A DNA stretch of 32,000 nucleotides from Polynucleobacter necessarius (GCF_900095195.1 NZ_LT606950.1:1281946-1313945), one strand, 5' to 3'. Counted from the stretch's first letter, positions 1 to 32,000 are shown. A program made the numbers and translations. Notes: generated by a model from the sequence alone, not told the origin.

Positions 1-581
1 TTTGGAAAGCTAATGGCCAAGAAATCTACCCCCATCGCAATCGCCGCATCTAAATCTGCAATGTCCTTTTCAGTTAATGCAGGCGCGGTCAATCCACCAC
101 CAGCGCGGTTAATCCCTTTATTGTTCGAAAGTGGGCCACCCTGCTCAACGATGGTAAAAATTTCGCCACCTTTAACGCTTTCGACTCGCAACACTACCAA
201 GCCGTCATTTAGTAAAAGACGATCGCCAGATTTCACATCATTTGGCAACTCTTTATAGTCAAGGCCAACACGCTCCTGATTGCCCAACTCACAAGCAACG
301 TCCAGGATAAATTTCTCGCCCTCCTTAAGAAGAATTTTGTTATCAATAAATTTTCCAACCCGAATTTTTGGGCCCTGCAAATCCGCCATGATGCCGACTT
401 CTTTTCCGGCTTCCGCAGAAATGCTGCGTACTAAATCATGGCGAGCCTTATGGTCAGCAACCGTGCCATGTGAAAAATTCATTCTCACCACATCAACACC
501 CGCGCGAATCATCTCACGTAAGACTTCTGGCTTCTCGGATGCGGGCCCTAAAGTTGCAATAATTTTGGTTGCTCTAAGCAT
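1..581 (-). CDS. pyk: pyruvate kinase, N-terminal part; gene runs off the left edge
   Basis: Not in the ORF track because it is truncated by the window. Minus-strand ATG at 581-579 translates as MLRATKIIATLGPASEKPEVLREMIRAGVDVVRMNFSHGTVADHKARHDL...MADLQGPKIRVGKF, a hallmark pyruvate kinase N-terminus. It starts 2 nt after the pgk stop, consistent with a pgk-pyk operon. Confidence 0.85.
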   Translation of the reverse strand, partial: MLRATKIIATLGPASEKPEVLREMIRAGVDVVRMNFSHGTVADHKARHDLVRSISAEAGKEVGIMADLQGPKIRVGKFIDNKILLKEGEKFILDVACELGNQERVGLDYKELPNDVKSGDRLLLNDGLVVLRVESVKGGEIFTIVEQGGPLSNNKGINRAGGGLTAPALTEKDIADLDAAIAMGVDFLAISFP

Positions 582-583
582 AA

Positions 584-1795
584 TTAGTCTTTCGCGCGCT
601 CAGCGAGAACCGCAAAGGCTGGCAAGGTTTTTCCTTCCAAAAATTCTAAGAAGGCACCGCCGCCAGTAGAGATGTAGTCAACTTGGTTTTCGATGCCATA
701 TTTTGCAATTGCGGCTAAGGTATCGCCACCGCCAGCAATCGAGAATGCGGGCGAATGCGCAATGGCCGCTGCTAACATTTTGGTGCCACCGCCAAATTGA
801 TCGATTTCAAATACACCCAGCGGGCCATTCCAAACAATCGTGCCGGCATGCGCGAGCATGATCGACAAACGTGCGGCAGTCTTCGGACCAATGTCCAAAA
901 TCATGTCGTCTTCGGCTACTTGATCTGCTGGTACCCGGTTTGCACGTGCAAGAGGAGAAAGTTCATTCGCCACAACCACGTCTTCTGGAATCGGTACATG
1001 CGCGCCACGCTTTTCCATCAACTCCATAATCTCGCGCGCCTCGTTTACCAAATCAGGCTCTGCAAGTGACTTGCCAATTGGCAAACCTTTAGCCAACATA
1101 AACGTATTAGCAATTCCGCCACCAACAATTAATTCATCGACTTTCTCAGAAAGCGCTTTCAAAATAGTCAATTTAGAAGACACCTTTGAGCCAGCAACAA
1201 TCGCAACCAACGGACGTTTCGGACTTGCGAGTGCACGACTTAACGCATCCAACTCAGCCGCCATTAATGGACCAGCACAAGCTATCGGCGCAAATTTTGC
1301 AACACCATTTGTCGTTGCTTCAGCGCGGTGAGCTGTCCCGAACGCATCATTGACATAAACATCACAAAGAGCAGCAATCTTTTTTGCTAGCTCATCATTG
1401 TTTTTTTTCTCGCCGACATTCAAGCGGCAATTTTCTAAAAGAACAACTTCGCCAGGCTGAACCTCAAATCCACCATTCACCCAATCACTAATCAGCGGAA
1501 CTTTTCGATTTAGCAGGGCAGCAATACGATCTGCTACTGGAGCTAACGAATCTTCTAGCTTAAATTCATTCTCGGTAGGGCGGCCCAAATGCGAAGTCAC
1601 CATTACAGCTGCGCCGGCATCCAAACACATTTGAACGGCAGGCATGGATGCCCGAATTCGAGCGTCCTCAGTAATATTCCCAGCCTCATCCTGGGGGACA
1701 TTAAGGTCGGCACGGATGAAAACCCGCTTTCCCTTCAATTGACCTGATTGGGCGAGTTCACTTAAACGCTTAACTTTAAACAAGGATTCCGGCAT
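584..1795 (-). CDS. pgk: phosphoglycerate kinase
   Basis: 403-aa ORF of full length for Pgk, with typical motifs (RADLNVP, TSHLGRP, ISTGGGA). Confidence 0.95.
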
Positions 1796-2004
1796 GACAG
1801 TGGCTAAATTTAGTGGTTTGTAAAGAATACTCTATTCTAAATCGTCCAGCCCTACCACCCCACAGGTCTGAGGCCTTAAACCGCTCCGCCTGCTCTACAA
1901 TAGAAATTTGGACGCTCAGTGACTCGAAACGCCTGTATCCGATGACCTGGCAACCTGATTAATCCGCTATTACAGATAGCTTATAGACACAAAAGGTAGA
2001 AAAA

Positions 2005-2928: not shown

Positions 2929-2952
2929 TCTTTAGCAATCAGGAAACACGGT

Positions 2953-3141: not shown

Positions 3142-3146
3142 CCATA

Positions 3147-3174: not shown

Positions 3175-3189
3175 GTCAGGATACATGAC

Positions 3190-4224
3190 ATGCAAGGTAT
3201 TCTGATCATTGCCCCAAATTGGATTGGGGACGCGGTGATGACCCAGCCGCTACTGGCAAAACTTAAATCGCAATACCCAAACTCAACGATTGATGTACTT
3301 GCTAGTACTTGGGTTGCGCCCATATATCGCGCTTGCTCTGAAGTGTCTGAAGTTATCGAAGCGGAATTCGAGCATAAGCAGTTGCAATGGGGCTTGCGAA
3401 AAAGAATTGCAAGCACTATTCAAGCAAGAAATTATCAACTCTGTTTTGTATTGCCAAATAGCTTTAAGTCCGCATTAATTCCTTGGTTAGCTAATATTCC
3501 ATTGCGCGTTGGCTATCGTGGAGAGTTTCGCTATGGACTTATTAACGTATCGCTAAGCAATCCAAGCAAAGTGAATCGCCCTCCAATGGTGAACCACTAC
3601 CTGGCACTAAGCCAACTTCTTATAGATGATGAACAAGCGTCTTTTAGCGAAATAACCCCAACATTAAATGTTTCGAATCAGGCGAAGAAATCCGTTGAAC
3701 ATAAACTCGCTAATAGCAATATCAATCCAAATACTCTTTATGTATTTTGTCCTGGAGCTGAGTATGGTCCAGCGAAACGCTGGCCGGCCAGTCATTTTGC
3801 AAAGCTAACAGAAGATCTCATTCAAGAAAATTCTGAAGCGCGAGTAGTTCTCTTGGGCAGTAAGGGCGATCATGAGATAGCCGAAGACATTCGACAACAG
3901 ACTAGTAATCAAACAAAAATACAAAATTGGTGCGGAAATACCTCCCTTGATGAAGCAATTGCTCTTATTGAGCTAGCTAAAGCAGTCGTCAGCAATGATT
4001 CTGGATTGATGCACATTGCAGCTGCACTGAAAACACCACAAGTGGCTATTTACGGCTCAAGCGAGCCGGCGCATACTCCTCCACTATCTGATAAAGCCAA
4101 AGTTATTTGGCTTAGCCTTCCCTGCAGCCCTTGTCACAAAAGAGAATGCCCGCTTGGTCACCTAAAATGCTTAATTGACATACAGCCTCAACAAGTTTTA
4201 GCTACACTAAACACCTTGCAATAA
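3190..4224 (+). CDS. waaF: ADP-heptose:LPS heptosyltransferase II
   Basis: 344-aa ORF of glycosyltransferase family 9, with N-terminus ILIIAPNWIGDAVMTQPLL and the motifs NDSGLMHIAAAL and PCSPCHKRECP. Confidence 0.85.
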   Translation: MQGILIIAPNWIGDAVMTQPLLAKLKSQYPNSTIDVLASTWVAPIYRACSEVSEVIEAEFEHKQLQWGLRKRIASTIQARNYQLCFVLPNSFKSALIPWLANIPLRVGYRGEFRYGLINVSLSNPSKVNRPPMVNHYLALSQLLIDDEQASFSEITPTLNVSNQAKKSVEHKLANSNINPNTLYVFCPGAEYGPAKRWPASHFAKLTEDLIQENSEARVVLLGSKGDHEIAEDIRQQTSNQTKIQNWCGNTSLDEAIALIELAKAVVSNDSGLMHIAAALKTPQVAIYGSSEPAHTPPLSDKAKVIWLSLPCSPCHKRECPLGHLKCLIDIQPQQVLATLNTLQ

Positions 4225-4244
4225 ATACTCAGGGATAATTAGTC

Positions 4245-4678
4245 ATGACTAAGCTAGCTAGACTCTTTTACAATGCCGATGATGTGGTTGATGCATGGCG
4301 CGATGCTCTGCGTCACCGCGATGTCAAAGGGGCTCTGGATATTTTGCTAGATGATGATTCTATTACTTGCGTTCTACCAGAGGGACACCGCTTAAGTGGT
4401 CACGTAGAAATTCGAGAGGGCCTAGAAAGGTTGTTATCAAAACAGCCATTATTTCTAGAACCAATTCTTGTATCAGTCACTCTATATTGGGAGCAGCAGT
4501 CTATGACACGACTGAAGCGGTTCATTTGCGAGCAGATCAAGTTGAAGCAGAATTCTTTCTCAACATTACTTTAGTTTTACTGCAAGATAGTCAAGGCTGG
4601 CGTATTGCTCATTTACACGCCAGCAGATCTACTGACGACAGCTTTGATGCACCAAACTCTCCACACGGTTTCCACTAA
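4245..4678 (+). pseudogene. SnoaL/NTF2-like (DUF4440-type) protein, frameshifted
   Basis: Two overlapping ORFs (4245..4574 and 4367..4678) in different frames. The N-terminal half reads sensibly only in frame 1 (MTKLARLFYNADDVVDAWRDAL...LFLEPILVSV). The C-terminal half reads sensibly only in frame 2 (SILGAAVYDTTEAVHLRADQVEAEFFLNITLVLLQDSQGWRIAHLHAS). The frame switch is at about 4470-4495. Confidence 0.6.
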
Positions 4679-4683
4679 TTGAT

Positions 4684-5301
4684 ATGGATGAGCAAGTATT
4701 ACGCTCACTCATCAAATGGCCGAATGTGCCCGATTGTTTTGGCTGGCTAGCCCTGGATCGCCGTGGTCAATGGTGCATGGTTGATGAATTTGCACAGCAG
4801 AATCAATTACCAGGTCAAATCATCCAACATGCTGCCCTCAATGAATGCATTCGCCGCAATTATGCAAGCGACTCATTTGGGCGATTCTTTTTTCAGAACG
4901 GTCCTCAGCGAGTCTTCATCACGCTAGCAGTCACCCCTTGGGTTGCTCGCATCATTCCTAGCGAAAGTGGATCGCAGATAGTTACACAATGTCATAAAAC
5001 CATGGAACCTAGTGCTGCGCTCAGCGATGAACAGGGAAATATTTACATACTAGGATCGACTATAGAAACAATTTGTACCGATTTCGATCACCAGCAGTTT
5101 GAAACCGCAGAGCGATCAATAGTTGCCCTGTTACATGATCATGATTTAGATCTTTTCTCTGAGTTGGCCAAACCTCGCGAAGAAGTCTGCAGTTTCGGCG
5201 GCTCTTGGAACTGGCATGGAGAACGGTTACCGCTTGATCCTATACATTCGGATGAATTAAGTAAAAAATTTGGCTTTATTCAACACCCACAGCCTATTTA
5301 G
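4684..5301 (+). CDS. conserved hypothetical protein
   Basis: 205-aa uninterrupted ORF (LIKWPNVPDCFGWLALDRRGQWCM...). I cannot assign a family from sequence alone. Its stop overlaps the convergent M48 protease gene by 4 nt. Confidence 0.55.
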   Translation: MDEQVLRSLIKWPNVPDCFGWLALDRRGQWCMVDEFAQQNQLPGQIIQHAALNECIRRNYASDSFGRFFFQNGPQRVFITLAVTPWVARIIPSESGSQIVTQCHKTMEPSAALSDEQGNIYILGSTIETICTDFDHQQFETAERSIVALLHDHDLDLFSELAKPREEVCSFGGSWNWHGERLPLDPIHSDELSKKFGFIQHPQPI

Positions 5302-7021: not shown

Positions 7022-7499
7022 ATGAACAAACTAACGCATTTTGATGATAGTGGCCAAGCCCATATGGTCAACGTAGCTGATAAACCCAGCACCCATCGCA
7101 TTGCCATTGCTACCGGCAAGATTACGATGCAACCCGAAACCTTCAAAATGGTTGAAGCCGGAAGCCATAAAAAAGGGGGATGTCTTAGGTATCGCCCGTA
7201 TCGCAGGTATTCAGGCATCTAAAAGAACCGCCGATTTGATTCCACTTTGCCATCCACTTGCTCTGACGCATGTCAGCTTGGAGTTTCAACATAATTCAGA
7301 AACGAAAAGCATTGCTTGCCAGGTGAGAGCAGAAACAACGGGGCCAACCGGGGTTGAAATGGAAGCCCTCACTGCTGTCCAAGTCGCGCTGCTCACAATA
7401 TACGATATGTGCAAAGCAGTAGACTGAGGAATGGTGATTGGTGATGTGAAACTACTCGAGAAGAGTGGTGGTAAAAGCGGAGAGTGGAAAGCGGTCTAG
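7022..7499 (+). pseudogene. moaC: cyclic pyranopterin monophosphate synthase MoaC, inactivated by 1 frameshift and 1 in-frame TGA
   Basis: [21 protein letters not shown]...GSHKKG reads in one frame and [27 protein letters not shown]...[26 protein letters not shown] in the next. The shift falls in the A6G5 run at 7168-7179. TGA at 7425-7427 is followed in the same frame by GMVIGDVKLLEKSGGKSGEWKAV*, which is the normal MoaC C-terminus. Confidence 0.85.
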
Positions 7500-7559: not shown

Positions 7560-8055
7560 TTATTTGCTGATCCTGCACTCTGAAGGCAGTAACTGAGGGA
7601 TCAGATTCGTTTCGGATGATCTGCAAGACCAACCCCCTGACCATGTAGACCCCTCTGGCTTTGACAAATCAATTGGTCTTGGCGATATTAGCATCAGGCT
7701 CATTTGTGGGAACGAGGTGCAAGGTATTTCTACCATCAGGAGCCACGCTGACTTGATAATCAATCGCTATTGCCCCAGAAGGTGTAATTTCAATCAGCTT
7801 CACGCTTCGTGTTGGCGTATAGGTAAAGGCTCCATTCGTTGCCTCATCCATTCGTACCGTTCCGCGACTGGCAAATGCTTCTGTAACAGCTAATTTAGCG
7901 CTTGAGGAAAGATTCATACCTTCTACAACACGACTGCGAGCAATGTAGTCTTGATACTGTGGAACGGCCACTGCTACCAAAATGCCAATGATGGCAACAA
8001 CGACCATAACCTCAATAATGTGAAACCTGCATCATGTTTGATGTCTTGTTGCATT
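7560..8055 (-). pseudogene. type IV pilin (PilA/PilE-like), two frameshifts
   Basis: The leader and start of the mature protein (MQQDIKHDAG|FTL) are in one frame. The hydrophobic core and body (VMVVVAIIGILVAVAVPQYQDYIARSRVVEG...) are in a second frame. The C-terminal disulfide-loop region (WSGGWSCRSSETNLIPQLLPSECRISK*) returns to the first frame. The shifts are at about 8014-8020 (observed ttattg where ttaattg would give FTLIEVM) and about 7670-7685. Confidence 0.75.
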
Positions 8056-11283: not shown

Positions 11284-11805
11284 CTAATCGGGGGTTTGAC
11301 CGCCAATCACCTTGGGGACCACATCTGGACTAAAATCCTTGGACACCAGGAACCGATAGTGCCTCGCACGCTTTTTTTGATCTTGAGGTTTTTGCCCATA
11401 CTTTCTTAGCCAAAGGTCGTATGCGCGCTGAAATTCGGCCACTTTGAGCTCGTTCAACAACTTAATTGACTGCCTTGAGTCAATATCTGCTCTTGCCAGC
11501 TCATCGGCAATTTTTCGCAAACCAAAACGCTCGCTTCTCCTGCGTACCAAGGCTTCGGCAAACCGCTCATCCGACAACCAACCTCGGGCCTCAAAATCAT
11601 CCAGGACAGCCTCAATGCTGGAGACTGTCGCTTGCTGATCTGAAGTTAAAGGTTCGTCACCCAACTTAGCCTACCGCGCCTCGAACTCAACTAATTTAGC
11701 ACCCAAGGTCTTACGACTATATTCTCGAAGCGATAAAAGACGCAAAGCCCGAGCTTTGAGGCTCGGGCTTTGCTTTGCTTTTTTACTACTAGGTCTGACA
11801 TGCAA
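11284..11805 (-). pseudogene. recX: RecA regulator RecX, interrupted by an in-frame TAG
   Basis: The ORF track gives only the C-terminal 126 aa, starting from a TTG at 11664. The same frame upstream reads (TTG 11805) HVRPSSKKAKQSPSLKARALRLLSLREYSRKTLGAKLVEFEAR-TAG(11671-11673)-AKLGDEPL. SLKARALRLLSLREYSR is the typical RecX N-terminal helix, so the ancestral gene started about 13 nt after recA. The exact start is uncertain, because an ATG at 11801 lies in another frame. Confidence 0.65.
11743..11772 (-). terminator. 12-bp stem-loop just downstream of recA, inside the 5' end of the recX frame (candidate attenuator)
   Basis: CAAAGCCCGAGC-tttgag-GCTCGGGCTTTG. T-rich sequence follows on both strands (cgtctttta on minus, ctttgctttttt on plus). 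Confidence 0.45.
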
Positions 11806-13029: not shown

Positions 13030-13563
13030 TTACGGATTTTTTACTAGGCTTTGCTCCAAAGGGGTGCGATCCCAGTAGAAAAACAGTGGGATCGCGACTG
13101 CCCAAACCACGCCAATCAGGACAAGCCAGATTATTTGGCCTCCAGGACCCCAACTGCCAGCGCCCATTGAATACCTGCCTCATAAGACATTGGACCGCAA
13201 ATACTCCCTAAAAAGGCCCCCAAAATCGGCCTGCCACGAAGCCAAGAAAGGGAGCCATTAATTGTTGTAGCCACCAATAGCCAAAGCGCCCACATCCAGA
13301 CTGGAGAAAGATTGCTCGATGGCCAAGCATCCTGAAAATCCAGGCATCCCAAATGCACAATTAGGGTGTCAGTCAGAATCCCTTAAAAATTAAGGCCCTG
13401 ATGAGCAAGTGAAATGATTCTTTGGGCTCATCAAGTTGCCAGATATGAAAAGCGATGTAAATCAAGGTCCCGAGCACGGCCCAAAGCACTTGCTGATTGG
13501 CCGCCCCCAATACACAAGCAAACCAACCCAGCTGGAAAAAGACGAAGTTCCAAAATTAGACAT
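13030..13563 (-). pseudogene. DUF2878-like small membrane protein, three frameshifts
   Basis: ATG at 13563 (MSNF...) is followed by three segments in three different frames:
- FWNFVFFQLGWFACVLGAANQQVLWAVLGTLIYIAFHIWQLDEPKESFHLLIRALIF
- GILTDTLIVHLGCLDFQDAWPSSNLSPVWMWALWLLVATTINGSLSWLRGRPILGAFLGSICGPMSYEAG
- IIWLVLIGVVWAVAIPLFFYWDRTPLEQSLVKNP*
The shifts are at about 13552-13555 (T4 run on the coding strand), about 13376-13390 and about 13131-13175. The family name is from memory. Confidence 0.6.
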
Positions 13564-13623: not shown

Positions 13624-13700
13624 TGGAGGCGAATCAGGGATTTGAACCCCGGACCTGCGGATTATGATTCCGTCGCTCTAACCAGCTGAGCTAATTCGCC
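13624..13700 (-). tRNA. tRNA with CAT anticodon (elongator Met, or Ile2 if lysidine-modified)
   Basis: The 77-nt sequence GGCGAATTAGCTCAGCTGGTTAGAGCGACGGAATCATAATCCGCAGGTCCGGGGTTCAAATCCCTGATTCGCCTCCA folds as a cloverleaf. It has a 7-bp acceptor stem, GCTC/GAGC D stem, anticodon loop AT-CAT-AA, T arm CGGGG/CCCTG with TTCAAAT, and an encoded CCA. G1-C72 pairing argues against an initiator tRNA. Confidence 0.9.
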
Positions 13701-13767
13701 GAATGTGTGATTGTAGCAAATCCGCCTTATTCTGTAATACATAGAGCCAGAAACGTAATATAGAAAG

Positions 13768-14088
13768 ATGAGCAAATTCCTTCAAAAACAGCTGATTTTG
13801 GTATTTTTAGGGTGTTTTATAGCCATGAACACCCACGCAGCCCAAATCTTCATCACCAACTATCCCTCTGAAGCAAATGCCAAAGTCTTTGCAACGAAGT
13901 ATCAGTCCGAAGCAAATTGCATTGTTTATGAAACGCAATATTCCAGCGATAACGAGCCGGGCGTGTGGTTTTATACAAAATATAAAAGCGATGCGAGAGC
14001 AACGATCTATTGCACCCAATACAAATTGGAAGCAGATCTCATTGTCTATTACACCAAGTACAAAAGTGATGCCCGCTGTCGTTATTAA
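13768..14088 (+). CDS. small secreted protein made of six tandem ~13-aa repeats
   Basis: 106-aa ORF with signal peptide MSKFLQKQLILVFLGCFIAMNTHA|AQ. It is followed by TNYPSEANAKVFA / TKYQSEANCIVYE / TQYSSDNEPGVWFY / TKYKSDARATIYC / TQYKLEADLIVYY / TKYKSDARCRY. Confidence 0.6.
   Translation: MSKFLQKQLILVFLGCFIAMNTHAAQIFITNYPSEANAKVFATKYQSEANCIVYETQYSSDNEPGVWFYTKYKSDARATIYCTQYKLEADLIVYYTKYKSDARCRY
13855..14085 (+). repeat. intragenic tandem repeat (about 39-bp unit, 6 copies, diverged)
   Basis: Periodic T-x-Y-x-S-[ED]-A-x-x-x-[VI]-[YF]-x units, visible in the translation of 13768..14088. Confidence 0.6.
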
Positions 14089-14713
14089 TGAATAACTCGC
14101 ATATGAGGCTTACCTCCATCTCCTCGGGAAAAGTATCCCCACTTTTTGGCAATCATCACCCCGACTACAAATCTGTCGCCTCAGCGATCCGCAAGAAAAG
14201 TATTAGCAACTTGCAAAACCCTGCAACGGTAGAAATCAACAATCTCGGCGCCAAAGGTGATGAACAGGCCGACCTGAGCGTTCATGGAGGTCTCGAGAAA
14301 GCTATTTATGTATACCCCGTTGAGCATTACGCATTTTGGAACGAACTACTCACTCGTGAAACCAAAAAAGAGACACAGCTCGAATATGGGGCAATTGGTG
14401 AAAACTTCACGGTTGAATGTCTACTGGAAACAGGGGTATTCGTTGGCGACAAATTGCGAATTGGCGAGCTGGAGTTCGTCGTTGTTAAATTGCGAGAGCC
14501 TTGCTTTAAGTTCAATGCTGCAATAGGTTACAAAGGCGCCAGCAAAGCGATGCCGCAATCAGATTATAGCGGCTGGTATTTCGTGTACTCAAAACCGGCA
14601 TGGCTTCGGCAGGCGCACAAATCCCCGTCGATCCCGGCTCAAGAAACACCTCAATCGCCCAGCAAAATCAACAGCTCTTAAAGAGTCGCAATCAACGAGA
14701 TTTGTGGGAATAA
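14088..14713 (+). pseudogene. MOSC domain protein (YiiM-like), C-terminal frameshift
   Basis: The N-terminal 165 aa fit YiiM (GDEQADLSVHGGLEKAIYVYPVEHYAFW, GAIGENFTVE, LREPCFKFN, SGWYF). After about 14578-14588 the annotated frame gives low-complexity VYSKPAWLRQAHKSPS. The +2 frame gives the expected RVLKTGMASAGAQIPVDPGSRNTSIAQQNQQLLKSRNQRDLWE* and ends at 14713. Confidence 0.7.
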
Positions 14714-18219: not shown

Positions 18220-18835
18220 TAATAAACATTTTAGGAACGCGCAGATCCCAATGAATGGCGACTGCGCGTAATCCAAAAATTCCCAACATACAGAGTACCG
18301 ATCCCTCAAGCGCATATTGCGGAATAAGGTTCAACACCAATATATACGCACAACATCCTAAAGTAACGGGAATGGCATACAACTCATGCGACATGATGAG
18401 TGTTTTTCGCCCTGCCAGAATGTCTCGTATTAATCCACCGCCTATCGCAGTAATAACCCCCAAAATCACTGGTCCCACGGGAAGTCCATATCCCATCGTC
18501 CAAGCCTTGTCTGTACCTTGAATCGCAAAAAGCGCAGCACCAAAACCATCGATGTACAACATCCGGCGGTAAATTTGTGGCTGAGTAAAAAACGATTCTG
18601 CTACAAAGGCCATGACGCTGGCACCAAGTGCTAACCACACATATATTTGGCTCTCCGACCAAAATACTGGGGCCTCCAAAATAATGTCCCGAATGGTTCC
18701 GCCGCCAATGGCAGTTATCAGGCCTAAAACCAGCACACCAAATAGGTCAACGCCTCGATCAGCAATTGCCAGTACGCCTGTAACCGCAAACGCCATCGTT
18801 GCAACCACCCCAATCCAAAATTGAATGTGTTCCAT
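18206..18835 (-). CDS. trimeric intracellular cation channel (TRIC/UPF0126, YadS-like) membrane protein
   Basis: 209-aa ORF with the duplicated motif ITAIGGGTIRDI / ITAIGGGLIRDI. Its 3' end overlaps the ggt pseudogene end by 14 nt. Confidence 0.8.
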   Translation of the reverse strand: MEHIQFWIGVVATMAFAVTGVLAIADRGVDLFGVLVLGLITAIGGGTIRDIILEAPVFWSESQIYVWLALGASVMAFVAESFFTQPQIYRRMLYIDGFGAALFAIQGTDKAWTMGYGLPVGPVILGVITAIGGGLIRDILAGRKTLIMSHELYAIPVTLGCCAYILVLNLIPQYALEGSVLCMLGIFGLRAVAIHWDLRVPKMFITKTR

Positions 18836-18921
18836 GCAAGCAGTCTAAAGCACTTTAAATAGCCAAACCAAAATTTAGGGGATGCATATACTGTTAGTCA
18901 TCATGTCCCAAAAGCCTCAAT

Positions 18922-19599
18922 ATGAAACCTAAGCTCTATAGTTTTTGGCGCAGCTCAGCTGCATTTCGGGTGCGCATTGCCCTAAATCTAAAGGGCATCA
19001 ACTATGACATTTTTCCAGTCCATTTAAGTAAAGATGGTGGCGACCAACTTTCAGAAACGTATGCCAATAAAAATCCAAACCGTTTGGTACCACTTCTAGA
19101 GGATGGTCATAATAGCCTTCATCAATCGGTTGCCATTATTGAATACCTTGAAGAAATTCACGCGCAACCCGCCCTACTTCCGAAATTAGCAATCGATCGT
19201 GCGTGGGTGCGTGCTTTAGCGCTGGATATTGCGAGCGATATCCACCCAATTGATAACTTGAGAGTCTTACGTTACTTGGTAAAAAAACTGGGCATCAGCA
19301 CTCAAGCCAAAGAAGATTGGTATCAACACTGGATATCCGTTGGCTTAGATAGTCTTGAAAAGCGGTTGATAAATGATCAACGCGTTGGACGATTTGTTTA
19401 TGGTGATCAACCTGGACTCATTGATATCTGTCTTGTACCTCAGATCTTTAATGCCTTAAGCGCCAAGATGGATATGAGCCCTTATCCAACAATCATGAGA
19501 ATCTTTAATGAATGTATGAAGCTACCAGCTTTTATAGATGCATCCTGGGAAAAACAAATTGATGCAGAGGGCCCAAATCCAACTAGCGCATACCAATAA
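18922..19599 (+). CDS. maiA: maleylacetoacetate isomerase (zeta-class GST)
   Basis: 225-aa ORF. LYSFWRSSAAFRVRIALNLKG and NPNRLVPLLEDG are typical of GST-zeta/MaiA. Confidence 0.8.
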   Translation: MKPKLYSFWRSSAAFRVRIALNLKGINYDIFPVHLSKDGGDQLSETYANKNPNRLVPLLEDGHNSLHQSVAIIEYLEEIHAQPALLPKLAIDRAWVRALALDIASDIHPIDNLRVLRYLVKKLGISTQAKEDWYQHWISVGLDSLEKRLINDQRVGRFVYGDQPGLIDICLVPQIFNALSAKMDMSPYPTIMRIFNECMKLPAFIDASWEKQIDAEGPNPTSAYQ

Positions 19600-19643
19600 T
19601 CACCAGGGAAATCTGTCGCAGTGATTTAGCTCGAAGGCAAAAA

Positions 19644-20166
19644 CTAAGAAATCTTTTTCAGAGTGTTGATGTAGCGTTGAGCATTCTTGATATAGCGCCC
19701 AGTAATTTCACCAATCCCTGCTTTCTGCTCAGAAGTGAGTGCTTTTACGGCTTTTGCAGGAGAGCCAATAATCATTGGCCCATCTGGAAACTCTTTACCT
19801 TCCGTGACTAGGGCGCCAGCACCAACCAAACAGTGTTTACCAATCTTGGCACCATTCAAAATAATTGCGCCAATTCCGATAAGACTGCCATCACCGATGC
19901 TGCATCCGTGCAGCATCACCTGATGACCAACAGTCACATTCTTACCAATCAAAAGGGGAACCCAGGGTCAGCATGAAGCACCGATGCATCCTGGACATTA
20001 CTGCCCTCGCCAATCTGAATAAGATCGTTATCACCGCGAATGACAACTTTTGGCCAAATATTGGCCCAGCATGAAGCTCAACTTTACCGATCACTTCAGC
20101 GCTTTGCGCAATATAAACGCCCTCAGATAACTGAGGAGCGTTTCCATCTAACTCATAAATAGCCAT
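19644..20166 (-). pseudogene. gamma-carbonic-anhydrase-like / hexapeptide-repeat (YrdA/PaaY-type) protein, two frameshifts
   Basis: [34 protein letters not shown] is in frame 1. [37 protein letters not shown] is in frame 2. [38 protein letters not shown]...KKIS* is in frame 3. The shifts are at about 20062-20070 and about 19950-19960, both at short G/C/T runs. Confidence 0.8.
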
Positions 20167-20202: not shown

Positions 20203-21435
20203 TTACCAGTTCGTTTCGCAATCGGGCGTTGAAGAAATTCGATGCACACTTAAATCAGCGCCCTCGAATTCTTCCTCTTGCGACATCCTTATACCAAGCA
20301 CTGCTTTCAAGGTTCCGTAAACCACAATCCCACCCATCAAAGCAATGCTAACCCCAAGGGCACTTCCAATAAGCTGCCCCGTAAAGGTAATACCCCCGAT
20401 TCCGCCAAATGCTTTTGCGCCAAAAATACCAGCGGCTAATCCGCCCCATAGTCCACACAAACCATGCAATGGCCAAACACCAAGTACGTCATCAATCTTC
20501 CAACGGTTTTGCACTAAGGTAAACATATACACAAACAATCCGCCAGCAACAAAGCCAACAACTAGCGCGCCAACAGGATGCATTAAGTCAGAACCAGCGC
20601 AGACCGCAACCAGACATGCAAGTGGGCCGTTATAGGTAAAGCCTGGGTCATTTCGCCCTACGATCCATGCAGCGAGCGTGCCACCAACCATTGCCATTAA
20701 TGAGTTCAGCGCAACTAGGCCGCTGATCTTATCGATCGTTTGCGCACTCATCACATTAAAACCAAACCAACCTACCGCCAATATCCAAGCACCTAACGCT
20801 AAGAAAGGAATGCTGGATGGTGGGTGTGCTGATATTTGGCCTTCATTGGTATAACGCCCACGACGTGCGCCCAACAGAATTACCGCTGGCAGCGCAATCC
20901 AACCGCCTACTGCGTTCACTACTACATAGCCTGCGAAATCATGGAATTCCTCACCAGTAAATTCTTTGATCCACGCCTGAATGCCATAGTGTTGATTCCA
21001 AGCGATTCCCTCGAAGAACGGATAAATAAATCCAACCAGCACAAAGGTTGCAATGAGTTGAGGATTAAATTTTGCTCGCTCAGCAATACCGCCAGAGATA
21101 TTCGCCGGAATAGCGGCCGCAAAGGTTAGTAAGAAGAAAAACTTCACAAGTTCGTAGCCGTTTTTCTCTGCAAGCAATTCGGCGCCAGAGAAAAAATTGA
21201 CGCCATAGGCAATGCTGTAGCCAATAAAGAAGTAGGCGATTGTAGAGACAGCAAAATCCACCAAAATTTTGACAAGCGCATTTACTTGGTTTTTCTTGCG
21301 AACAGTACCAAGCTCCAAGAATGCAAAGCCCGCATGCATAGCAAGAACCATAATGGCGCCTAGCAAAATGAATAAAGCATCACTGCCTGATTTCAAGATT
21401 TCCACGTCTTTTCCACCGCCTATTTTTTGCATCAT
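20203..21435 (-). CDS. amt: ammonium transporter
   Basis: 410-aa uninterrupted polytopic ORF of the Amt/MEP family (AMHAGFAFLELG, FAGYVVVN, GVWPLHGLCGLWGG). Confidence 0.9.
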   Translation of the reverse strand: MMQKIGGGKDVEILKSGSDALFILLGAIMVLAMHAGFAFLELGTVRKKNQVNALVKILVDFAVSTIAYFFIGYSIAYGVNFFSGAELLAEKNGYELVKFFFLLTFAAAIPANISGGIAERAKFNPQLIATFVLVGFIYPFFEGIAWNQHYGIQAWIKEFTGEEFHDFAGYVVVNAVGGWIALPAVILLGARRGRYTNEGQISAHPPSSIPFLALGAWILAVGWFGFNVMSAQTIDKISGLVALNSLMAMVGGTLAAWIVGRNDPGFTYNGPLACLVAVCAGSDLMHPVGALVVGFVAGGLFVYMFTLVQNRWKIDDVLGVWPLHGLCGLWGGLAAGIFGAKAFGGIGGITFTGQLIGSALGVSIALMGGIVVYGTLKAVLGIRMSQEEEFEGADLSVHRISSTPDCETNW

Positions 21436-21542: not shown

Positions 21543-21910
21543 ATGAAAAAATTACCGCATTTTTAGCGGCTTTTGCAGCATTTTCTGGCCTAGCGCAAGC
21601 GCAAGCAAACGCTCTAGTAAAAGTACTCAGCACACAAGAATTGGTCAATGTTTGTAAATTGCCAGCAAGCCCAGATTCACGCAGCTTTTGTATCGGCTAT
21701 TCCACAGCAATTTATGACACCTATTTAGCAACACGTCATCCACAACGCGCAAAGCCATTTATTTGCATCGAACAACCAGCTACATCACGCGATGAAGTGA
21801 TTGCGGATTTTGTGAAGTTCGGTCAAGAAAATCCACAAACTGCTGATAAACCAGCATCCGGCGTTTTCCTCGGTTTCTTGGCAGCAAAATTTCCATGCGC
21901 TAGAAAATAA
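21543..21910 (+). pseudogene. small secreted Cys-containing protein, frameshift in the A6 run right after the start codon
   Basis: ATG 21543 followed by aaaaaa (21546-21551) gives MKKLPHF*. With one more A the frame reads MKKITAFLAAFAAFSGLAQA|QANALVKVLSTQELVNVCKLPASPDSRSFCIGYSTAIYDTYL...FPCARK*. That is a clean signal peptide joined to the 21641..21910 ORF. The C..C.GY...YD pattern resembles Rap1a/Tai4-type periplasmic proteins, a weak resemblance recalled from memory. Confidence 0.6.
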
Positions 21911-21956: not shown

Positions 21957-22240
21957 ATGAAAAAAATTATCGCGATTACTGCAACTATTCTTGCTATTGC
22001 AGGCTGCTCCAATATGAGCAACACTGAACAACGCACTCTCTGGTGCTGGTATCGGCGCCGTTGCCGGCGGCGTAGGCGCAGCCATTTTCCACGGCAACCC
22101 CATTTGGGGGAGTAGGCGGCGCGGCAGTTGGCGCGGCGTCTAGATATGTATACGATGCTTACAAAAAAGAGCAGGCATCAGAGTACAACGCGGGATATAA
22201 CGCAGGCAAAAACAATAAGCCTGCAAATGCTCCGAATTAA
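21957..22240 (+). pseudogene. glycine-zipper outer-membrane lipoprotein, two frameshifts
   Basis: MKKIIAITATILAIAG|CSNMSNTEQRTL carries a lipobox. GAGIGAVAGGVGAAIFHGNPIWG follows in the +1 frame, then VGGAAVGAASRYVYDAYKKEQASEYNAGYNAGKNNKPANAPN* in the +2 frame. The shifts are at about 22036-22042 and at the G5 run 22106-22110. The start-to-stop distance is not a multiple of 3. Confidence 0.7.
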
Positions 22241-22626
22241 TTTACAAGCTGGGTTTTTATTTGGATGGCGCCTGTCAGTGCCTTGTGGATTGGGCACCTA
22301 TTCGCAATCTCAATTAAACGCTCTTTTTCTTCCGCACTCAGATCGCCCTCTAACTGGATCTCCCGCGTAAATGTTTCAACAGCATTTATGCGCTCAATGT
22401 CAACCGTCACGATTGCATTTCTCAAGTCCATCAATTTCCGGCCAGCATACATCTTTAAAGTCATGCTAGTGCATGCTGCTAGAGCCGCACCCAAGTACTC
22501 GTGCGGAGTGGAACCAATACCATTTCCGCCATTAGCTGGATAAACATCGGATAAAAAATGCAAATCACCAGACGTTAATTTTTGCTGCAATGGACCTTCA
22601 CCAAACTGTGAAATTACTTTTCTCAT
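22237..22626 (-). CDS. osmC: OsmC family peroxiredoxin-like protein
   Basis: 129-aa uninterrupted ORF with the two conserved Cys contexts (LAACTSMT and NRCPIHKAL). Confidence 0.85.
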   Translation of the reverse strand: MRKVISQFGEGPLQQKLTSGDLHFLSDVYPANGGNGIGSTPHEYLGAALAACTSMTLKMYAGRKLMDLRNAIVTVDIERINAVETFTREIQLEGDLSAEEKERLIEIANRCPIHKALTGAIQIKTQLVN

Positions 22627-23056
22627 TTGTGCTCCTCATTATTTTTTATTGGATTTTCATTCTTGTGAGGCTTGCCCACTTGTTCTGCGGTTGGCAGACC
22701 TGCCTTCTTCTAAGCGCTGAATCCACCCTCTAGGTGGGAAACGTTCGGCAATCCCATTTTTTGCAAAGCCTCAGTTGCTAATGCAGATCGCCAAGCAGAC
22801 GCGCAGTAAAGTACTAAGCGCTTACCCTCACCAAATATCGGCTTGTAGTAGGGGCTCTCTGGGTCTACCCAGCTCTCGGCGCATGGAATGCATTGGGAAT
22901 CATGCCCTCTCGCTCTAACTCACGCACATCGCGAATATCCACAAAGACCGAATTGCTCTCCAATAATAATTTCTCAGCCTGATCCAATGGAATTGTCTCA
23001 ATTTGAGCCATGGCGCTTTCTATTAAGGCACGATAACCAATCTTCAATTTCACCAA
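22623..23056 (-). pseudogene. rhodanese-domain sulfurtransferase, internal indel/frameshift and an in-frame TAG
   Basis: The reconstruction reads as follows:
- MVKLKIGYRALIESAMAQIETIPLDQAEKLLLESNSVFVDIRDVRELEREGMIPNAFHAPR
- break at about 22868-22878, where several codions appear to be missing
- WVDPESPYYKPIFGEGKRLVLYCASAWRSALATEALQKMGLPNVSHLEGGFSA-TAG(22710-22712)-KKAGLPTAEQ...
The active-site loop is CASAWRS. The frame ends in a TGA that overlaps the osmC ATG as ATGA at 22623-22626. Confidence 0.75.
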
Positions 23057-24440: not shown

Positions 24441-25787
24441 ATGAAAAAACTCTATATCAAAACCTTTGGCTGTCAAATGAACAAGTATGACTCGGGCAAA
24501 ATGGCGGACCTACTTCATGCTGATGAAGGCATGGTCATAACGAATTTCCCTGAAGACGCAGATGTTGTTCTTTTAAATACGTGCTCCATTCGGGAAAAGG
24601 CAGAGGATAAAGTATTCTCAGATTTAGGCCGTTTGCAGGAACTCAAAAAAGTCAAACCTGATTTACTGATTGGTGTGGGTGGCTGCGTCGCCAGTCAAGA
24701 GGGTCAACAAATCGTCAGTCGTGCACCCTATGTTGATGTGGTTTTTGGTCCCCAAACTTTACATCGCTTGAGCGATCTGATCGCACAACGCCGCAAAACA
24801 GGACTCTCTCAGGTCGATATTTCGTTTCCAGAAATAGAAAAGTTTGATCATCTACCGGCATCCCGCCAGACCCGTGGCTCGGCATATGTTTCTATCATGG
24901 AAGGTTGCTCAAAATATTGCAGCTATTGTGTTGTTCCCTATACACGCGGCGAAGAAGTTTCTAGACCATTTGATGATGTGCTTACCGAAGTTGCTGGGCT
25001 CGCTAGCCAAGGTGTCAAAGAAATTGTTTTATTGGGACAGAATGTCAATGCCTATCTCGGCAAAATGGGTAGCACCCAAGAAATTGCAGACTTTGCACTT
25101 TTAATTGAGTACATTGCCGATATACCAGGGGTTAAACGTATTCGATTTACTACTAGCCACCCAAAAGAATTTACTCAGCGCTTAATCGATGTTTACGCCA
25201 AAGTACCAAAGCTCGTAAGCCGCCTTCATCTCCCAGTGCAGCACGGATCTGACGCCATACTCTTAGCTATGAAACGTGGCTATACAGCCTTAGAGTACAA
25301 AAGCATTATTCGCAAAATGCGCGCGGTACGCCCCGATCTGACGTTATCAAGTGACTTTATTGTGGGCTTCCCTGGTGAGACAGATGCAGACTTTGACAAG
25401 CTTCTGAGAATGGCAAAAGAACTTGAATTCGATAACAGTTTTTGTTTTATTTTTAGCCCTAGACCAGGGACACCTGCTGCCTACTTAAGTGATAATACTC
25501 CGTACGAAGTAAAGCTAAAACGCCTGCAAACTCTCCTTGGAGTGGTGGAAGACCAAGCCAACCAGATTAGCCAAAAAATGCTGGGTAACACTGAAACGAT
25601 ATTGGTAGAAGGTTTAGCAAAGGACGGGGTGAATTTACAAGGCCGCTCTGAAAATAATCGGGTAGTGCACTTTACCGTCCAAGATGACGAAATCGAATCG
25701 TTTATCGGGAAAATGGTTGATATACAAATCACTGAGGTACTCAATTACTCACTCAGAGGTGAGTTAGTCGAAGTCCATGCCAACTAA
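24441..25787 (+). CDS. miaB: tRNA-2-methylthio-N6-dimethylallyladenosine synthase
   Basis: 448-aa ORF with the N-terminal UPF0004 Cys triad (FGCQMN...NTCSIR...GGCVA), the radical-SAM motif CSKYCSYC and a C-terminal TRAM domain. Confidence 0.95.
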
Positions 25788-26256
25788 AACAACATCAAGC
25801 GCCTCTTCACTAGTAGTAGACATTCAAACTGCTAGCCCAGTTATTGAAGCAACCTTAGAAAAAATCGCTTCGACTGCACTTATTAAAAAATGGGTGAAGC
25901 TAAGCCTCAATTGTGGAGGCTTACTAACGCTACGTTTTGTCAACAGAGCAGAAGGCAAAAAACTCAATGAAGCATTTCGGGGGAAGGGGTACGCAACAAA
26001 TGTCCTCACTTTCCCTTACGAGAGCTCAAAGAAAAAAGTTGAGGCAGACCTTATCTTTTGCCTACCTGTGATTCAAAAAGAGGCCAAAGAACAAGGCAAT
26101 ACAGTCAGGGCCCACTTAGCACACTTAGTGATTCATGGCTGTCTCCACGCTCAAGACTTCGATCATGAGAATGCAACAGATGCCATGAAAATGGAGGCTC
26201 ATGAAATACGATTATTAAAAGCCTTGGGTATCTCAAACCCCTATCTACCCATCTAA
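25777..26256 (+). CDS. ybeY: rRNA maturation RNase YbeY
   Basis: 159-aa ORF with the metal-binding motif [15 protein letters not shown]. Its start overlaps the miaB 3' end by 11 nt. Confidence 0.85.
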
Positions 26257-27138: not shown

Positions 27139-28662
27139 TTGTTCAATCGACAATCTTTCAGACCAATTCCCAAAGCATCTCTACTAATACTATTGGGGTT
27201 GGGCTCCCTGCTTGCAGGTGCAACCGAGCTACCTTATGGCGGCTGGATCCAGATTCCCATCTTGTCCTTGGTATGGCTTCAACTTACGACTAATCCATCA
27301 TCAAAATTATCAGAACATTTTGCTTCTGGCATCGTGTTTGGGATTGGGTATTTTGCAATTAGCCTATGGTGGCTTTACATTAGCATGCATGATGTAGGCG
27401 GGATGAATTCTTTGCTTTCAGGAGCGGCGGTATTGATCTTATCTACCTATATGGCGCTCTTTTTTTCAGCTGCCTCCCTAGCGATTCCAGCATTTAAAAG
27501 ATCAAAATTCACCGGAGTTCTATTGGGTTCAAGCTGGGTGATCATGGAATTTCTTCGCGGATATATTTTTACTGGATTCCCTTGGGCAGGATTTGCAGAA
27601 TCGCAGGTGAATGGTCCTTTTGCACCAATAGCGCCTTTACTGGGAGGTCTCGCTTGTACCTTTTTAGTCATTTGGATTTCTTGGGAATTGCTTCAGACGA
27701 AACGGCAAGCATTCTTGAGTGGGGCTATCATCATTTGCGCAATTGTCAGCACTCAATTGATCGGTCTCATGAGTTTCACAAAGCCCTTTGGAGAACCCAT
27801 TACGGTTCGCCTTATTCAAGGCAACTTTGAACAGAGCTTGAAATTTAACCCTGCAGCAATAAGCGAGCAAATTCATTTTTATTCTTCGCAAATAAAAAGT
27901 CGGCCCGCTAACCTCATCATCATTCCTGAGACCGCATTTCCTTGGCCACAAAATAAATTACCACCGGAATTATTGAGTGACCTGCAGGATTATTCAAATT
28001 TGAGCTCGAGCAACCTCTTGCTTGGTCTAGTTGGCGAAGTCACTAGTGATCAAGGCATGCAATACACTAATCGAGCAATTGGCTTATCGCCCAATGCTTT
28101 GCCCTATGAATACGATAAGGTGCACTTGGTTCCATTTGGGGAATTTATTCCCCCAGGCTTCCATTGGTTTGTCAAAGCATTCAATGTGCCCTTAAGTGAT
28201 TTTGCGCGGGGCAATCTTGATCAACCTGCATTTAGCATTATTCGCAAAAATCAAGATGCTGTTCATGCAGCGATTACGATTTGCTACGAAGATGTTTTTG
28301 GCGGCGAGCTTGCAAATCGCATACGAAAAAATTCTGAACCAGCCAATTTTTTAATTAACTTAACGAATCTAGCTTGGTTTGGCCAATCACAAGCACCAAC
28401 ACAACAACTGCGACTCTCTCAACTGCGCTCGCTTGAAACGGGATTACCAGCATTGCGCGCCACCAATACCGGGATCACCTCCGTTCTCGGACCTGACGGG
28501 AAAGTGCTGCAATCGCTTCCTGAACTCACTCAGGCAAACCTGAGAACCGAAGTGCAGGCATACAGCGGCAAAACGCCTTTTGTCACTTGGGGTAATTTGC
28601 CCATTTTGGGCATTTCATGCCTGCTCTTAATTTGGGGTTTTATTCGCTATCGACGTTTTTAG
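27139..28662 (+). CDS. lnt: apolipoprotein N-acyltransferase
   Basis: 507-aa ORF with N-terminal transmembrane helices and a C-terminal nitrilase-like domain (IIIPETAFP, ICYEDVF). There is no in-frame ATG near the 5' end, so TTG at 27139 is the earliest possible start and the start is uncertain. Confidence 0.85.
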   Translation: MFNRQSFRPIPKASLLILLGLGSLLAGATELPYGGWIQIPILSLVWLQLTTNPSSKLSEHFASGIVFGIGYFAISLWWLYISMHDVGGMNSLLSGAAVLILSTYMALFFSAASLAIPAFKRSKFTGVLLGSSWVIMEFLRGYIFTGFPWAGFAESQVNGPFAPIAPLLGGLACTFLVIWISWELLQTKRQAFLSGAIIICAIVSTQLIGLMSFTKPFGEPITVRLIQGNFEQSLKFNPAAISEQIHFYSSQIKSRPANLIIIPETAFPWPQNKLPPELLSDLQDYSNLSSSNLLLGLVGEVTSDQGMQYTNRAIGLSPNALPYEYDKVHLVPFGEFIPPGFHWFVKAFNVPLSDFARGNLDQPAFSIIRKNQDAVHAAITICYEDVFGGELANRIRKNSEPANFLINLTNLAWFGQSQAPTQQLRLSQLRSLETGLPALRATNTGITSVLGPDGKVLQSLPELTQANLRTEVQAYSGKTPFVTWGNLPILGISCLLLIWGFIRYRRF

Positions 28663-28721
28663 TCAATTGTGACGCTGGAATACGCTAGCCATGTAAAATC
28701 AACGGCTTAGCCAGGTTAATC

Positions 28722-29606
28722 ATGCTTACTTTTCAGCAAATCATTCTCAAACTTCAAGACTATTGGGACCAACAAGGTTGCGCCCTTTTGCAACCCATCG
28801 ACCTTGAGGTTGGCGCGGGCACATCCCATACCGCTACTTTCTTGCGTGCCATTGGCCCAGAGCCTTGGAAAGCCGCTTATGTTCAGCCATCGCGGAGACC
28901 AAAAGATGGCCGCTATGGCGAGAATCCAAATCGCTTACAGCACTACTACCAATATCAAGTGGTACTCAAACCTGCCCCAGAAAACATTCTTGAGCTTTAC
29001 TTGGGCTCCCTAGAGGCTCTTGGACTCGATCTCAAAGAAAATGACATTCGTTTTGTTGAAGATGACTGGGAAAACCCCACATTGGGAGCTTGGGGCTTAG
29101 GCTGGGAAGTATGGCTTAATGGCATGGAAGTGACACAGCTCACTTACTTCCAACAAGTGGGTGGCTTTGATTGCAAACCGGTTTTAGGCGAAATTACTTA
29201 CGGTATCGAGCGCCTTGCGATGTATATCCAAAATTGCTCAAACGTATACGACTTAGTTTGGGCAGATGGTATTTCGTATGGGGATGTTTACCTTCAGAAT
29301 GAAGGTGAGCAATCTTGCTATAACTTCGAGCACTCCAACACAGATCTTCTCTTTGCTAACTTTAATAATTATGAAAGTGAAGCAAAGCGTCTTATGGAAG
29401 TACCGCTAGCATTACCTGCTTACGAAATGGCTCTCAAAGCAGCGCATACTTTCAACCTACTGGATGCCCGTGGCGCAATTTCCGTGACAGAACGTGCAGC
29501 GTATATTGGACGTATCCGCAATCTTTCGCGCTCCGTTGCCCAAGCCTATTTTAAATCCCGGGAAAAGCTTGGTTTCCCCATGTGTCAACGCCAATCAACA
29601 GTATGA
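28722..29606 (+). CDS. glyQ: glycine--tRNA ligase subunit alpha
   Basis: 294-aa ORF with highly conserved GlyQ sequence ([20 protein letters not shown]..., [10 protein letters not shown]). Confidence 0.95.
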
Positions 29607-31741
29607 GCCAATCACCCTCGACCCCGCAATCAGACAGTTTGCTGATTGAAATCTTTACTGAAGAATTGCCCCCAAAGTCCTTACGACGTTTAGGTGATGC
29701 ATTTAGTGAGGGTATTTTTACCAAACTCAAAGACGCAAAACTAACAACCACCTCTTCTATTGCTACTAGCTTTGCTACGCCACGTCGACTATCAGTACTC
29801 ATTGGTGACGTGCTGAGTCAAGCAGAAGATTACCCGGTAAGAGAAAAGCTGCTTCCTACCAGCATTGCTTTTGATGCAGAAGGTAAAGCAACACCGCCTC
29901 TTCTGAAAAAATTAGCAGCCCTTGGATATCAAGATATTGATTTAGCAACGCTAGAAAAGTCGGGTGAAGGCAAAAATGAAGCTCTTTATCTCAAAGTGAC
30001 TACTAAAGGTGCAGCGCTTGAGCAAACTGTTCAGGTAGCGCTGGAACTAACATTGAATAAGTTGCCTATTGCCAAAATGATGCACTACCAAGTGATACAA
30101 AAAAATGGTCAATTAGTGGATGTGCAATTTGCACGCCCTGCGCATCGAATCATCGCTTTACATGGCAAAACCGTTTTGAATATTACCGGTCTTGGAATCG
30201 CAGCCAGCAATCGAACAGAAGGCCATCGTTTCTTGGCTCCTGGCATAGTAACGATCTGTACTGCTGACCAATATGAGCACGACCTTCACAATAGGGCCAA
30301 GGTTATTCCAAGTTTTGAAAAGCGCCGAGCACAAATTGAAAACTCTCTATTAAAAGCAGCGGGAGACGATTTTGTGCTGATGCCAGATACCCTCTTGGAT
30401 GAAGTGACTGCCCTCGTCGAGTGGCCCGCTATTTATGAATGTCAGTTTGATCCTAAGTTCTTAGAAGTACCTCAGGAATGCCTAATATTGACGATGAAAA
30501 CTAATCAAAAATATTTTGCCCTCACCGATAAGCAGGGTAAATTGCGCAATCGCTTTTTAATTGTTTCCAATATTGAAACCCCTACTCCAGCAGCAATTAT
30601 TTCCGGTAATGAACGCGTAGTGCGTCCTAGACTATCCGATGCTCGGTTTTTCTTCCAACAAGACAAAAAGCGACCGCTCGCATCTCGCGTTACAGATCTA
30701 GCCAAAGTGGTTTACCACAATCAACTTGGCAATCAACTCGACCGTACAAAGCGTGTACAAGCAATTGCGATTGGAGTTGCAAAACAACTCGTGGCAGATG
30801 AAAAATTAGCAGGTCGCGCCGCAGAAATCGCTAAGACCGATTTGCTGACTGATATGGTTGGCGAGTTTCCAGAGCTACAAGGCATCATGGGGACCTACTA
30901 TGCCAATTACGATGGCGAAGATTCCGAAGTGGCTGCCGCATGTAGTGAGCACTATATGCCACGTTTTGCAGGCGATGCCCTTCCTAAAACATCGACCGGA
31001 ACCATTCTTGCGATTGCAGACAAGTTAGAGACTTTAATTGGTATTTGGGGTGTAGGTTTAGCACCAACTGGCGATAAAGATCCCTATGCATTACGTCGTC
31101 ATGCGCTAGGTATCTGCAGACTGCTGCTAGAAAAAAATCTTCCCCTTAGTCTTCCAGAGCTAATTGATCTCGCCAAAGCACAATTCCCTCAAAAAGAAGT
31201 GCAAGAGAAGGTAGTTACGACAGATATCTACGATTTCATTATTGATCGTATGAGGGCTTATTTACGCGATCAATCCATAGGTGGCAAACCCTTCACCACA
31301 GCTGAGATTGACGCAGTATTGAGCCAATCGCCATCCCATTTAAATGACTTAATTGACCGTTTAACCGCCCTGCGGGAATTTAATGCGCTGCCTGAAGCAG
31401 TGCAATTAGCGGCAGCTAATAAACGAATTAGCAATATTCTCAAGAAAAATACTGTAGCTATTCCGCCGGCCTGCTCAAACAAACTTTTGCAAATTCCAGC
31501 GGAAGTTGCTGTTTTCAAAACACTAGAGGAAGTTGGTCCAACCCTGAGTGCCGCTTATGACAAACGTCAATTTGTTGAATTTCTCAGGGCACTTGTCGCG
31601 CTAAGCGCTCCAATTGATCAGTTCTTTGCGGATGTCATGGTTATGGACCCCAATCCTGAACTACGTGATAACCGTTTGGCGCTTTTGCAACAACTCCATC
31701 AAAAAATGAATCTCATTGCTGATATCGGCAAATTGGCATGA
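29603..31741 (+). CDS. glyS: glycine--tRNA ligase subunit beta
   Basis: The ORF track starts at GTG 29582. I prefer ATG 29603 ([25 protein letters not shown]), which overlaps the glyQ stop as ATGA. The product is about 712 aa. Confidence 0.9.
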
Positions 31742-32000
31742 GCGCTAGCTCCTCTAAGCTGATTATTTTTGATCGCGATGGCGTGATTAATGAAGATCGA
31801 GATGACTATGTAAAATCGGTGGATGAATGGATTCCACTTCCTGGCAGTCTAGAAGCGATAGCACTTCTCAATCAAGCAGGCTATCAAATTGCCATCGCCA
31901 CGAATCAGTCTGGCCTTGCAAGAGGCTATTTCACCATCAACGATTTACATGCAATGCACAGCAAAATGGAGCGGCTGCTACAGCCCCTCGGCGGAAAAAT
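31738..32000 (+). CDS. gmhB: D-glycero-beta-D-manno-heptose-1,7-bisphosphate 7-phosphatase, N-terminal part; runs off the right edge
   Basis: ATG 31738 overlaps the glyS TGA as ATGA. The translation [65 protein letters not shown] carries the HAD motif I DRDGV and resembles GmhB. Confidence 0.8.
   Translation, partial: MSASSSKLIIFDRDGVINEDRDDYVKSVDEWIPLPGSLEAIALLNQAGYQIAIATNQSGLARGYFTINDLHAMHSKMERLLQPLGGK

Follow-up and report, generated by a model that had tools for sequence, protein, structure and literature searches.

The stretch of DNA analysed here, a 32,000-nucleotide (nt) segment of Polynucleobacter necessarius (GCF_900095195.1 NZ_LT606950.1:1281946-1313945; hereafter the window), contains 36 protein-coding loci, two of which (pyk and gmhB) are cut by the window ends, and one tRNA-Met. 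We show that 12 of these loci are interrupted genes, each of which aligns over its full extent with a single intact, syntenic orthologue from free-living Polynucleobacter, and does so only across frameshifts or stop codons. The other 24 are uninterrupted, either giving single full-length in-frame matches or carrying intact Pfam domains (tblastn, Pfam). A first-pass annotation, made from the raw sequence, had already called the same 12 of about 36 loci near-full-length pseudogenes, and tblastn against free-living relatives, the check that it proposed, returned multi-frame or stop-containing matches for exactly these loci. Its boundaries stand for the 12 loci as listed, except that we place the MOSC-domain locus at 14103-14713 rather than 14088-14713. 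Its estimate of about 25 lesions (7 nonsense and about 18 indels) over about 7.9 kb compares with our count of 26, made up of 7 nonsense codons and 19 frameshifting indels over 7,943 bp.

Deletions account for about 16 of the 19 frameshifting indels and insertions for 3, and all six nonsense codons whose origin can be polarised arose by a G:C-to-A:T change. The interrupted loci nevertheless span 0.90-1.02 of the length of their orthologues (90-102%), and their protein identity to these orthologues (61-91%) lies in the same range as that of the intact neighbours (58-96%), in accordance with the annotation's view that inactivation is recent and that deletion lags behind it.

To map the lesions, we compared free-living orthologue proteins with the window by frameshift-aware protein-to-DNA alignment and tblastn, and combined these with three-way nucleotide alignments. 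The free-living reference loci, which jointly span the whole window, comprise two from a recA-anchored scan of species-representative genomes (L001 and L002) and others from protein-cluster members, including the isolate Polynucleobacter sp. TUM22923 (L084), its close relatives (L085 and L086), and lake metagenome contigs (L087-L089). Among the matches listed, L001 and L002 have a RecA 95-96% identical to that of the window, the same gene order, and 76-80% DNA identity. The closest other DNA among these matches is likewise of Polynucleobacter type, with 76-80% nucleotide identity and conserved gene order in L001, L002, L085 and L087; the published range of average nucleotide identity in a Polynucleobacter comparison is about 76-84% (PMC5018217, Table 3). 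In every free-living genome examined, the orthologues of all 12 loci are single intact open reading frames (ORFs) at the same positions, and none shows the split architecture that the first-pass annotation had named as an argument against its joins. Therefore, the joins proposed for the 12 loci are ancestral. For the third sequence of the alignments we used a sister strain, represented by contigs L081 (Logan SRR32119647) and L082 (ENA ERZ27248707), which come from independent data sets, carry the exact RecA protein, and share 96-98% DNA identity with the window. Lesions found in both strains are referred to below as shared, and those found in one strain only as private.

Lesions of the twelve interrupted loci

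The SnoaL_3-domain pseudogene (4245-4678, plus strand) has a single 1-nt deletion at 4468, common to the sister strain, relative to an orthologue of 144 amino acids (aa; L085:12225-12659, Pfam PF13474). Further along the same strand, moaC (7022-7499; orthologue 158 aa) has gained one nucleotide at 7169, in an A6G5 run, and its CGA codon at 7425 has become TGA. Neither lesion occurs in the sister strain, which instead has a TGA at codon 110 (L081:14316-14789). It is followed on the minus strand by a type IV pilin pseudogene with N_methyl and Pilin domains (7560-8055; orthologue 192 aa), which carries a private frameshift at 8017 and a shared one at 7683. The recX pseudogene (11284-11805, minus strand), whose orthologue carries the RecX Pfam domain, adjoins the intact recA and combines a private 1-nt deletion near 11788 with a shared TAG at 11673. 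In the DUF2878 membrane-protein pseudogene (13030-13563, minus strand), the frameshifts at 13556 and 13168 are private and that at 13383 (+2 nt) is shared; frameshift-aware alignment over-called an N-terminal lesion in the sister strain's copy of this gene.

The MOSC-domain pseudogene (14103-14713, plus strand; orthologue 203 aa) is interrupted by a shared 1-nt deletion at 14581 (codon 160), to which the sister strain adds a frameshift at codon 92. The MFS (Sugar_tr) transporter pseudogene (14766-16426, minus strand), which retains 91% aa identity to an orthologue of 556 aa, has a TAG at 16342, a 1-nt deletion at 15855, and further TAG codons at 15716 and 15284, with the lesions at 15855 and 15716 common to the sister strain. 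The gamma-glutamyltransferase (GGT) pseudogene (16637-18219, plus strand; orthologue 545 aa, 86% aa identity) has a TGA at 16889, 1-nt deletions at 16917 and 16943, and a 14-nt deletion at 18042, of which the lesions at 16889 and 16917 recur in the sister strain. Frameshift-aware alignment also flagged a TAA at 16613, which lies upstream of the likely GGT start and was excluded from the lesion count.

A hexapeptide-repeat protein pseudogene (19644-20166, minus strand; orthologue 174 aa) carries frameshifts at 20066, where the frame is disrupted in the sister strain as well, and at 19956, in a C-run, where the lesion is private. The Rap1a-like secreted protein pseudogene (21543-21910, plus strand; orthologue 120 aa) has lost one nucleotide just after ATG AAA AAA, a shared lesion that leads to a stop at codon 8. 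Since this frameshift lies three codons past the start, it was missed by frameshift-aware alignment and was found by direct reading of the sequence. Downstream of it the frame is open, but without a start codon or signal peptide, and this locus is the least certain of the 12 pseudogenes. The frameshift (21543-21560) sits in a run of seven A's, and the sequence is identical in the sister strain. The Gly-zipper lipoprotein pseudogene (21957-22240, plus strand; orthologue 95 aa) has 2-nt deletions at 22038 (shared) and 22111 (private), and the rhodanese-domain pseudogene (22623-23056, minus strand; orthologue 136 aa) has a 13-nt deletion at 22872 and a TAG at 22712, both shared.

The lesions are heritable and the interrupted loci evolve neutrally

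In the sister strain, too, each of the 12 loci is broken. Three-way alignment shows that 14 of the 26 lesions are common to both strains, either base for base or as the same frame disruption, and that 11 of the 12 loci contain at least one shared lesion. The other 12 lesions are private and include three substitutions (CGA to TGA, TGG to TAG, and CAG to TAG) as well as deletions of 14 and 2 nt. The indels that separate the two strains, 42 in number, are distributed very unevenly: 32 fall in the 12 pseudogenes, six in amt and a DUF6150 ORF (both described below), and four between genes, with no indel at all in the 8.9 kb of genes left intact in both strains. If indels were spread uniformly, a split of 32 to none between the pseudogenes and the genes intact in both strains would have a probability of 3.5e-11. 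Because independent assemblies of the sister strain carry 14 of the 26 lesions, we conclude that the lesions are genuine, heritable mutations.

The substitutions that separate the two strains carry an additional signal. We sorted these 233 substitutions by codon position, comparing 10 genes intact in both strains with the 12 pseudogenes. In the pseudogenes, substitutions are uniform over codon positions 1, 2 and 3 (35/34/40; p = 0.75), whereas the intact genes have a third-position bias (21/15/52; p = 1.5e-6). At positions 1 and 2, the rate in the pseudogenes is 1.33%, compared with 0.61% in the intact genes (Fisher p = 1e-4), and the overall rate in the pseudogenes (1.41%) is similar to the intergenic rate (1.55%) and near the third-position rate of the intact genes (1.75%). 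The 12 loci thus evolve neutrally, without purifying selection, and the excess of deletions and the G:C-to-A:T nonsense changes are the usual mutational biases acting without selection.

Two other explanations of the interruptions have to be weighed against pseudogenisation. According to one, the genome is otherwise intact, and the frameshifts and stops are errors of sequencing or assembly. This would account for the 12 lesions that are seen only in this assembly, and short homopolymer runs do contain a few of the lesions (for example, A6G5 at 7169 and a C-run at 19956). However, errors would have had to produce identical lesions in two independent assemblies of a strain differing at 1-2% of sites, and to break the same 12 loci there. 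They would also strike genes randomly, and random sequencing error is disfavoured because functional genes are spared by inter-strain indels. Moreover, seven base substitutions and three deletions of 13-14 or 2 nt are atypical types of error, and the neutral substitution pattern of the pseudogenes is independent of the indels altogether. We therefore consider this explanation extremely improbable.

Hardly more probable is the second explanation, in which the interrupted genes still function through programmed or transcriptional slippage, stop-codon read-through, a changed genetic code, or a deliberately split architecture. Two frameshifts do occur in slippery runs, the A7 run after the Rap1a-like start codon and the A6G5 run in moaC, where there is a slight possibility that some expression persists; at the Rap1a-like locus, transcriptional or translational slippage might in principle restore the frame. 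Several fragments are also still sizeable ORFs (for example, GGT, 387 aa, and MOSC, 197 aa). Yet neither an in-frame stop nor a frameshift occurs in any of the 24 intact loci, which indicates that the code is standard, and in most of the interrupted loci between two and four lesions, of different types, lie outside slippery sequence. Genes in use would not be expected to accumulate substitutions uniformly over codon positions at the intergenic rate, nor to gain further lesions in the sister strain, including deletions of 35 and 133 nt, and their free-living orthologues are unsplit. Pseudogenisation by genuine mutation therefore accounts best for the interruptions.

Intact neighbours and strain-specific decay

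Most of the intact loci have an in-frame free-living match: pyk (partial), pgk, ilvE, a zf-CHCC protein, waaF, DUF2944, an M48 peptidase, TerC, sucD, sucC, recA, a 209-aa membrane protein, amt, OsmC, a Na+/H+ antiporter, miaB, ybeY, corC, lnt, glyQ, glyS, and gmhB (partial). Two further ORFs, encoding a GST and a DUF6150 protein, have intact Pfam domains, and a counterpart is absent from the free-living loci compared. Each occupies a place where gene content differs from that of free-living relatives. Beside tRNA-Met (window 13700-14088), the DUF6150 ORF (13768-14088, plus strand, 106 aa) stands in place of the PrpD-like gene of L001 (L001:7527-8978), and at window 18835-19644 the GST gene (18922-19599, plus strand) is found where L001 (1798-2727) and L087 have a Mem_trans carrier. 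The window contains no remnant of the PrpD-like gene (483 aa) or of the Mem_trans gene (309 aa) of free-living relatives, reflecting either some complete loss or flexible gene content. An Rfam scan of the window returned nothing besides tRNA-Met, a search for further gene remnants between the annotated loci yielded only alternative-frame shadows of known genes, and there are no transposase or insertion sequence (IS)-like ORFs among the window loci.

Some of the intact genes are unusually divergent. The proteins of waaF (3190-4224), DUF2944 (4684-5301), ybeY (25777-26256) and lnt (27139-28662) have 58-65% identity to their free-living orthologues, while those of their neighbours have 85-96%; these four may be under relaxed constraint in the symbiont or may belong to families that normally evolve fast. 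OsmC (22237-22626), also intact, has the highest divergence from the sister strain (2.05%) and no third-position bias (2/4/2). It is perhaps already under relaxed selection, but with eight substitutions only, the sample is too small to say.

Gene loss also differs between the two strains, and new lesions go on arising in each independently. The amt gene (20203-21435, minus strand) is intact in this strain, whereas the sister strain's copy is disrupted by a stop at codon 204, by frameshifts, and by the deletion of 209 nt, a sign that decay is under way; similarly, the DUF6150 ORF has four frameshifting indels in the sister strain (coordinates compared for amt and DUF6150, L081:751-1783 and L082:1817-2868). 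In the same 12 interrupted loci, the private lesions of the sister strain outnumber those of this strain about two to one, and include the 35- and 133-nt deletions mentioned above. Because the moaC lesions differ entirely between two 98%-identical strains, this gene was probably intact in their common ancestor and lost twice. That decay is still running, and is partly independent in close strains, across the genome as a whole is a more speculative proposition, which we regard as unlikely. If it were true genome-wide, such pairs of strains could reveal in which order genes are lost and allow the rates of pseudogene birth and erosion in a protist endosymbiont to be estimated directly.

Genome reduction in Euplotes endosymbionts

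The window is very probably a chromosomal segment of P. necessarius, an obligate cytoplasmic endosymbiont of Euplotes, in a pseudogene-rich phase of reductive genome evolution. The organism had been named correctly in the first-pass annotation: ten intact window proteins (pgk, ilvE, waaF, sucD, sucC, recA, amt, miaB, glyQ and the Na+/H+ antiporter) match P. necessarius proteins exactly (WP_1146631xx, among those carrying names), and all ten are encoded on a single contig of 1,550,368 bp. An exact look-up of the 209-aa membrane protein gave no record, probably owing to a different choice of start codon. For obligate intracellular life in Euplotes we rely on the name given to the organism in the matching records and on the literature (PMC5018217). 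The AT-leaning composition that the annotation had also taken as a sign of symbiosis does not distinguish this organism, as its GC (guanine plus cytosine) content of about 45% is the same in free-living relatives (44.8-46.1% in free-living Polynucleobacter and 45.6% in the symbiont STIR1; PMC5018217, Table 1). Its assignment of the window to an early to middle stage of reductive evolution, on the other hand, is upheld by the neutral substitutions, the deletion bias, the intact free-living orthologues, and the recurrence of lesions in the sister strain.

Established knowledge of endosymbiont genome reduction suggests how this state could have arisen. Life in the Euplotes cytoplasm would remove selection on genes that are no longer needed, in this case those for a pilus subunit, an MFS transporter, GGT, MoaC, a MOSC protein, RecX, a rhodanese, and small envelope or unknown proteins. 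Drift would then fix disabling mutations in them at the neutral rate, namely small indels, mostly deletions, and G:C-to-A:T nonsense changes. Deletion bias would later erode the remnants; inactivation is probably recent enough that large deletions have yet to remove them. Core genes remain under selection, and decay continues separately in closely related strains. We infer host restriction as the cause of the loss of selection. The description of the casualties as accessory functions in the first-pass annotation fits the pilin, MFS, GGT, MoaC, MOSC, RecX and rhodanese loci, although 'detoxification' is a loose term for GGT and rhodanese, as is 'envelope' for the Rap1a-like and Gly-zipper proteins. 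It had also listed housekeeping genes as intact, and pyk, pgk, ilvE, waaF, sucCD, recA, miaB, ybeY, lnt and glyQS are indeed uninterrupted.

Several observations weigh against this interpretation or limit its reach. Substitution counts per locus are too low to establish neutrality gene by gene, with two to four substitutions each in the Rap1a-like, hexapeptide and rhodanese loci, and truncated products (MOSC residues 1-159 and the C-terminal part of RecX) might in principle keep partial activity. The 12 private lesions appear in a single assembly, and three of them are in short homopolymer or dinucleotide contexts (7169, 19956 and 13168). Finally, the local pseudogene share of 33% (12 of 36) exceeds the published genome-wide share of 15-17%, though not the upper estimate of 26%; by a binomial test it differs from the lower published estimates (p = 0.006-0.015) and is compatible with the upper one (p = 0.22).

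Massive pseudogenisation is also known from other recently host-restricted bacteria, such as Sodalis glossinidius, 'Ca. Sodalis pierantonius' SOPE, Serratia symbiotica and Mycobacterium leprae. Like the window, these have length-preserved pseudogenes scattered among housekeeping genes, small indels and nonsense changes, a deletion bias, and remnants that evolve neutrally. The insect symbionts among them, in addition, have undergone a large expansion of IS elements and rearrangements. The window differs from the latter in having no IS elements and in keeping the gene order of free-living relatives, a pattern also reported for P. necessarius (PMC4285135).

That P. necessarius is heavily pseudogenised has already been published and forms part of the emended species description, and our analysis adds no new principle. 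What it offers is a clean, well-controlled case of early endosymbiont decay, in which both intact orthologues and a near-identical sister strain are available for comparison. Its main value is methodological, in that a reading based on nothing but the raw sequence was correct on all 12 pseudogenes, on the lesion counts, and on the organism. The genome of STIR1, a symbiont of Euplotes aediculatus, was reportedly described by Boscaro et al. in 2013 (PNAS), and genomes of further Euplotes symbionts reportedly by Boscaro et al. in 2017 (Nat Ecol Evol). P. necessarius genomes have been noted for 'a large number of pseudogenes' (PMC5018217), with a count of 269 given for STIR1 (PMC5632650). Another report (PMC4285135) gives 231-460 pseudogenes for STIR1, puts the part of the coding capacity that can still be seen as pseudogenes at 13-18%, and notes that mobile elements have not spread, a finding with which the lack of transposase-like ORFs in the window agrees. 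Compared with these symbiont genomes, which belong to the same species and measure about 1.55-1.56 Mb, the window has a higher pseudogene share (12 of 36 loci, against the published genome-wide 13-18%). In other respects it closely resembles them, with many near-full-length pseudogenes, intact free-living orthologues in the same order, no mobile-element spread, and a GC content unchanged from that of free-living relatives.

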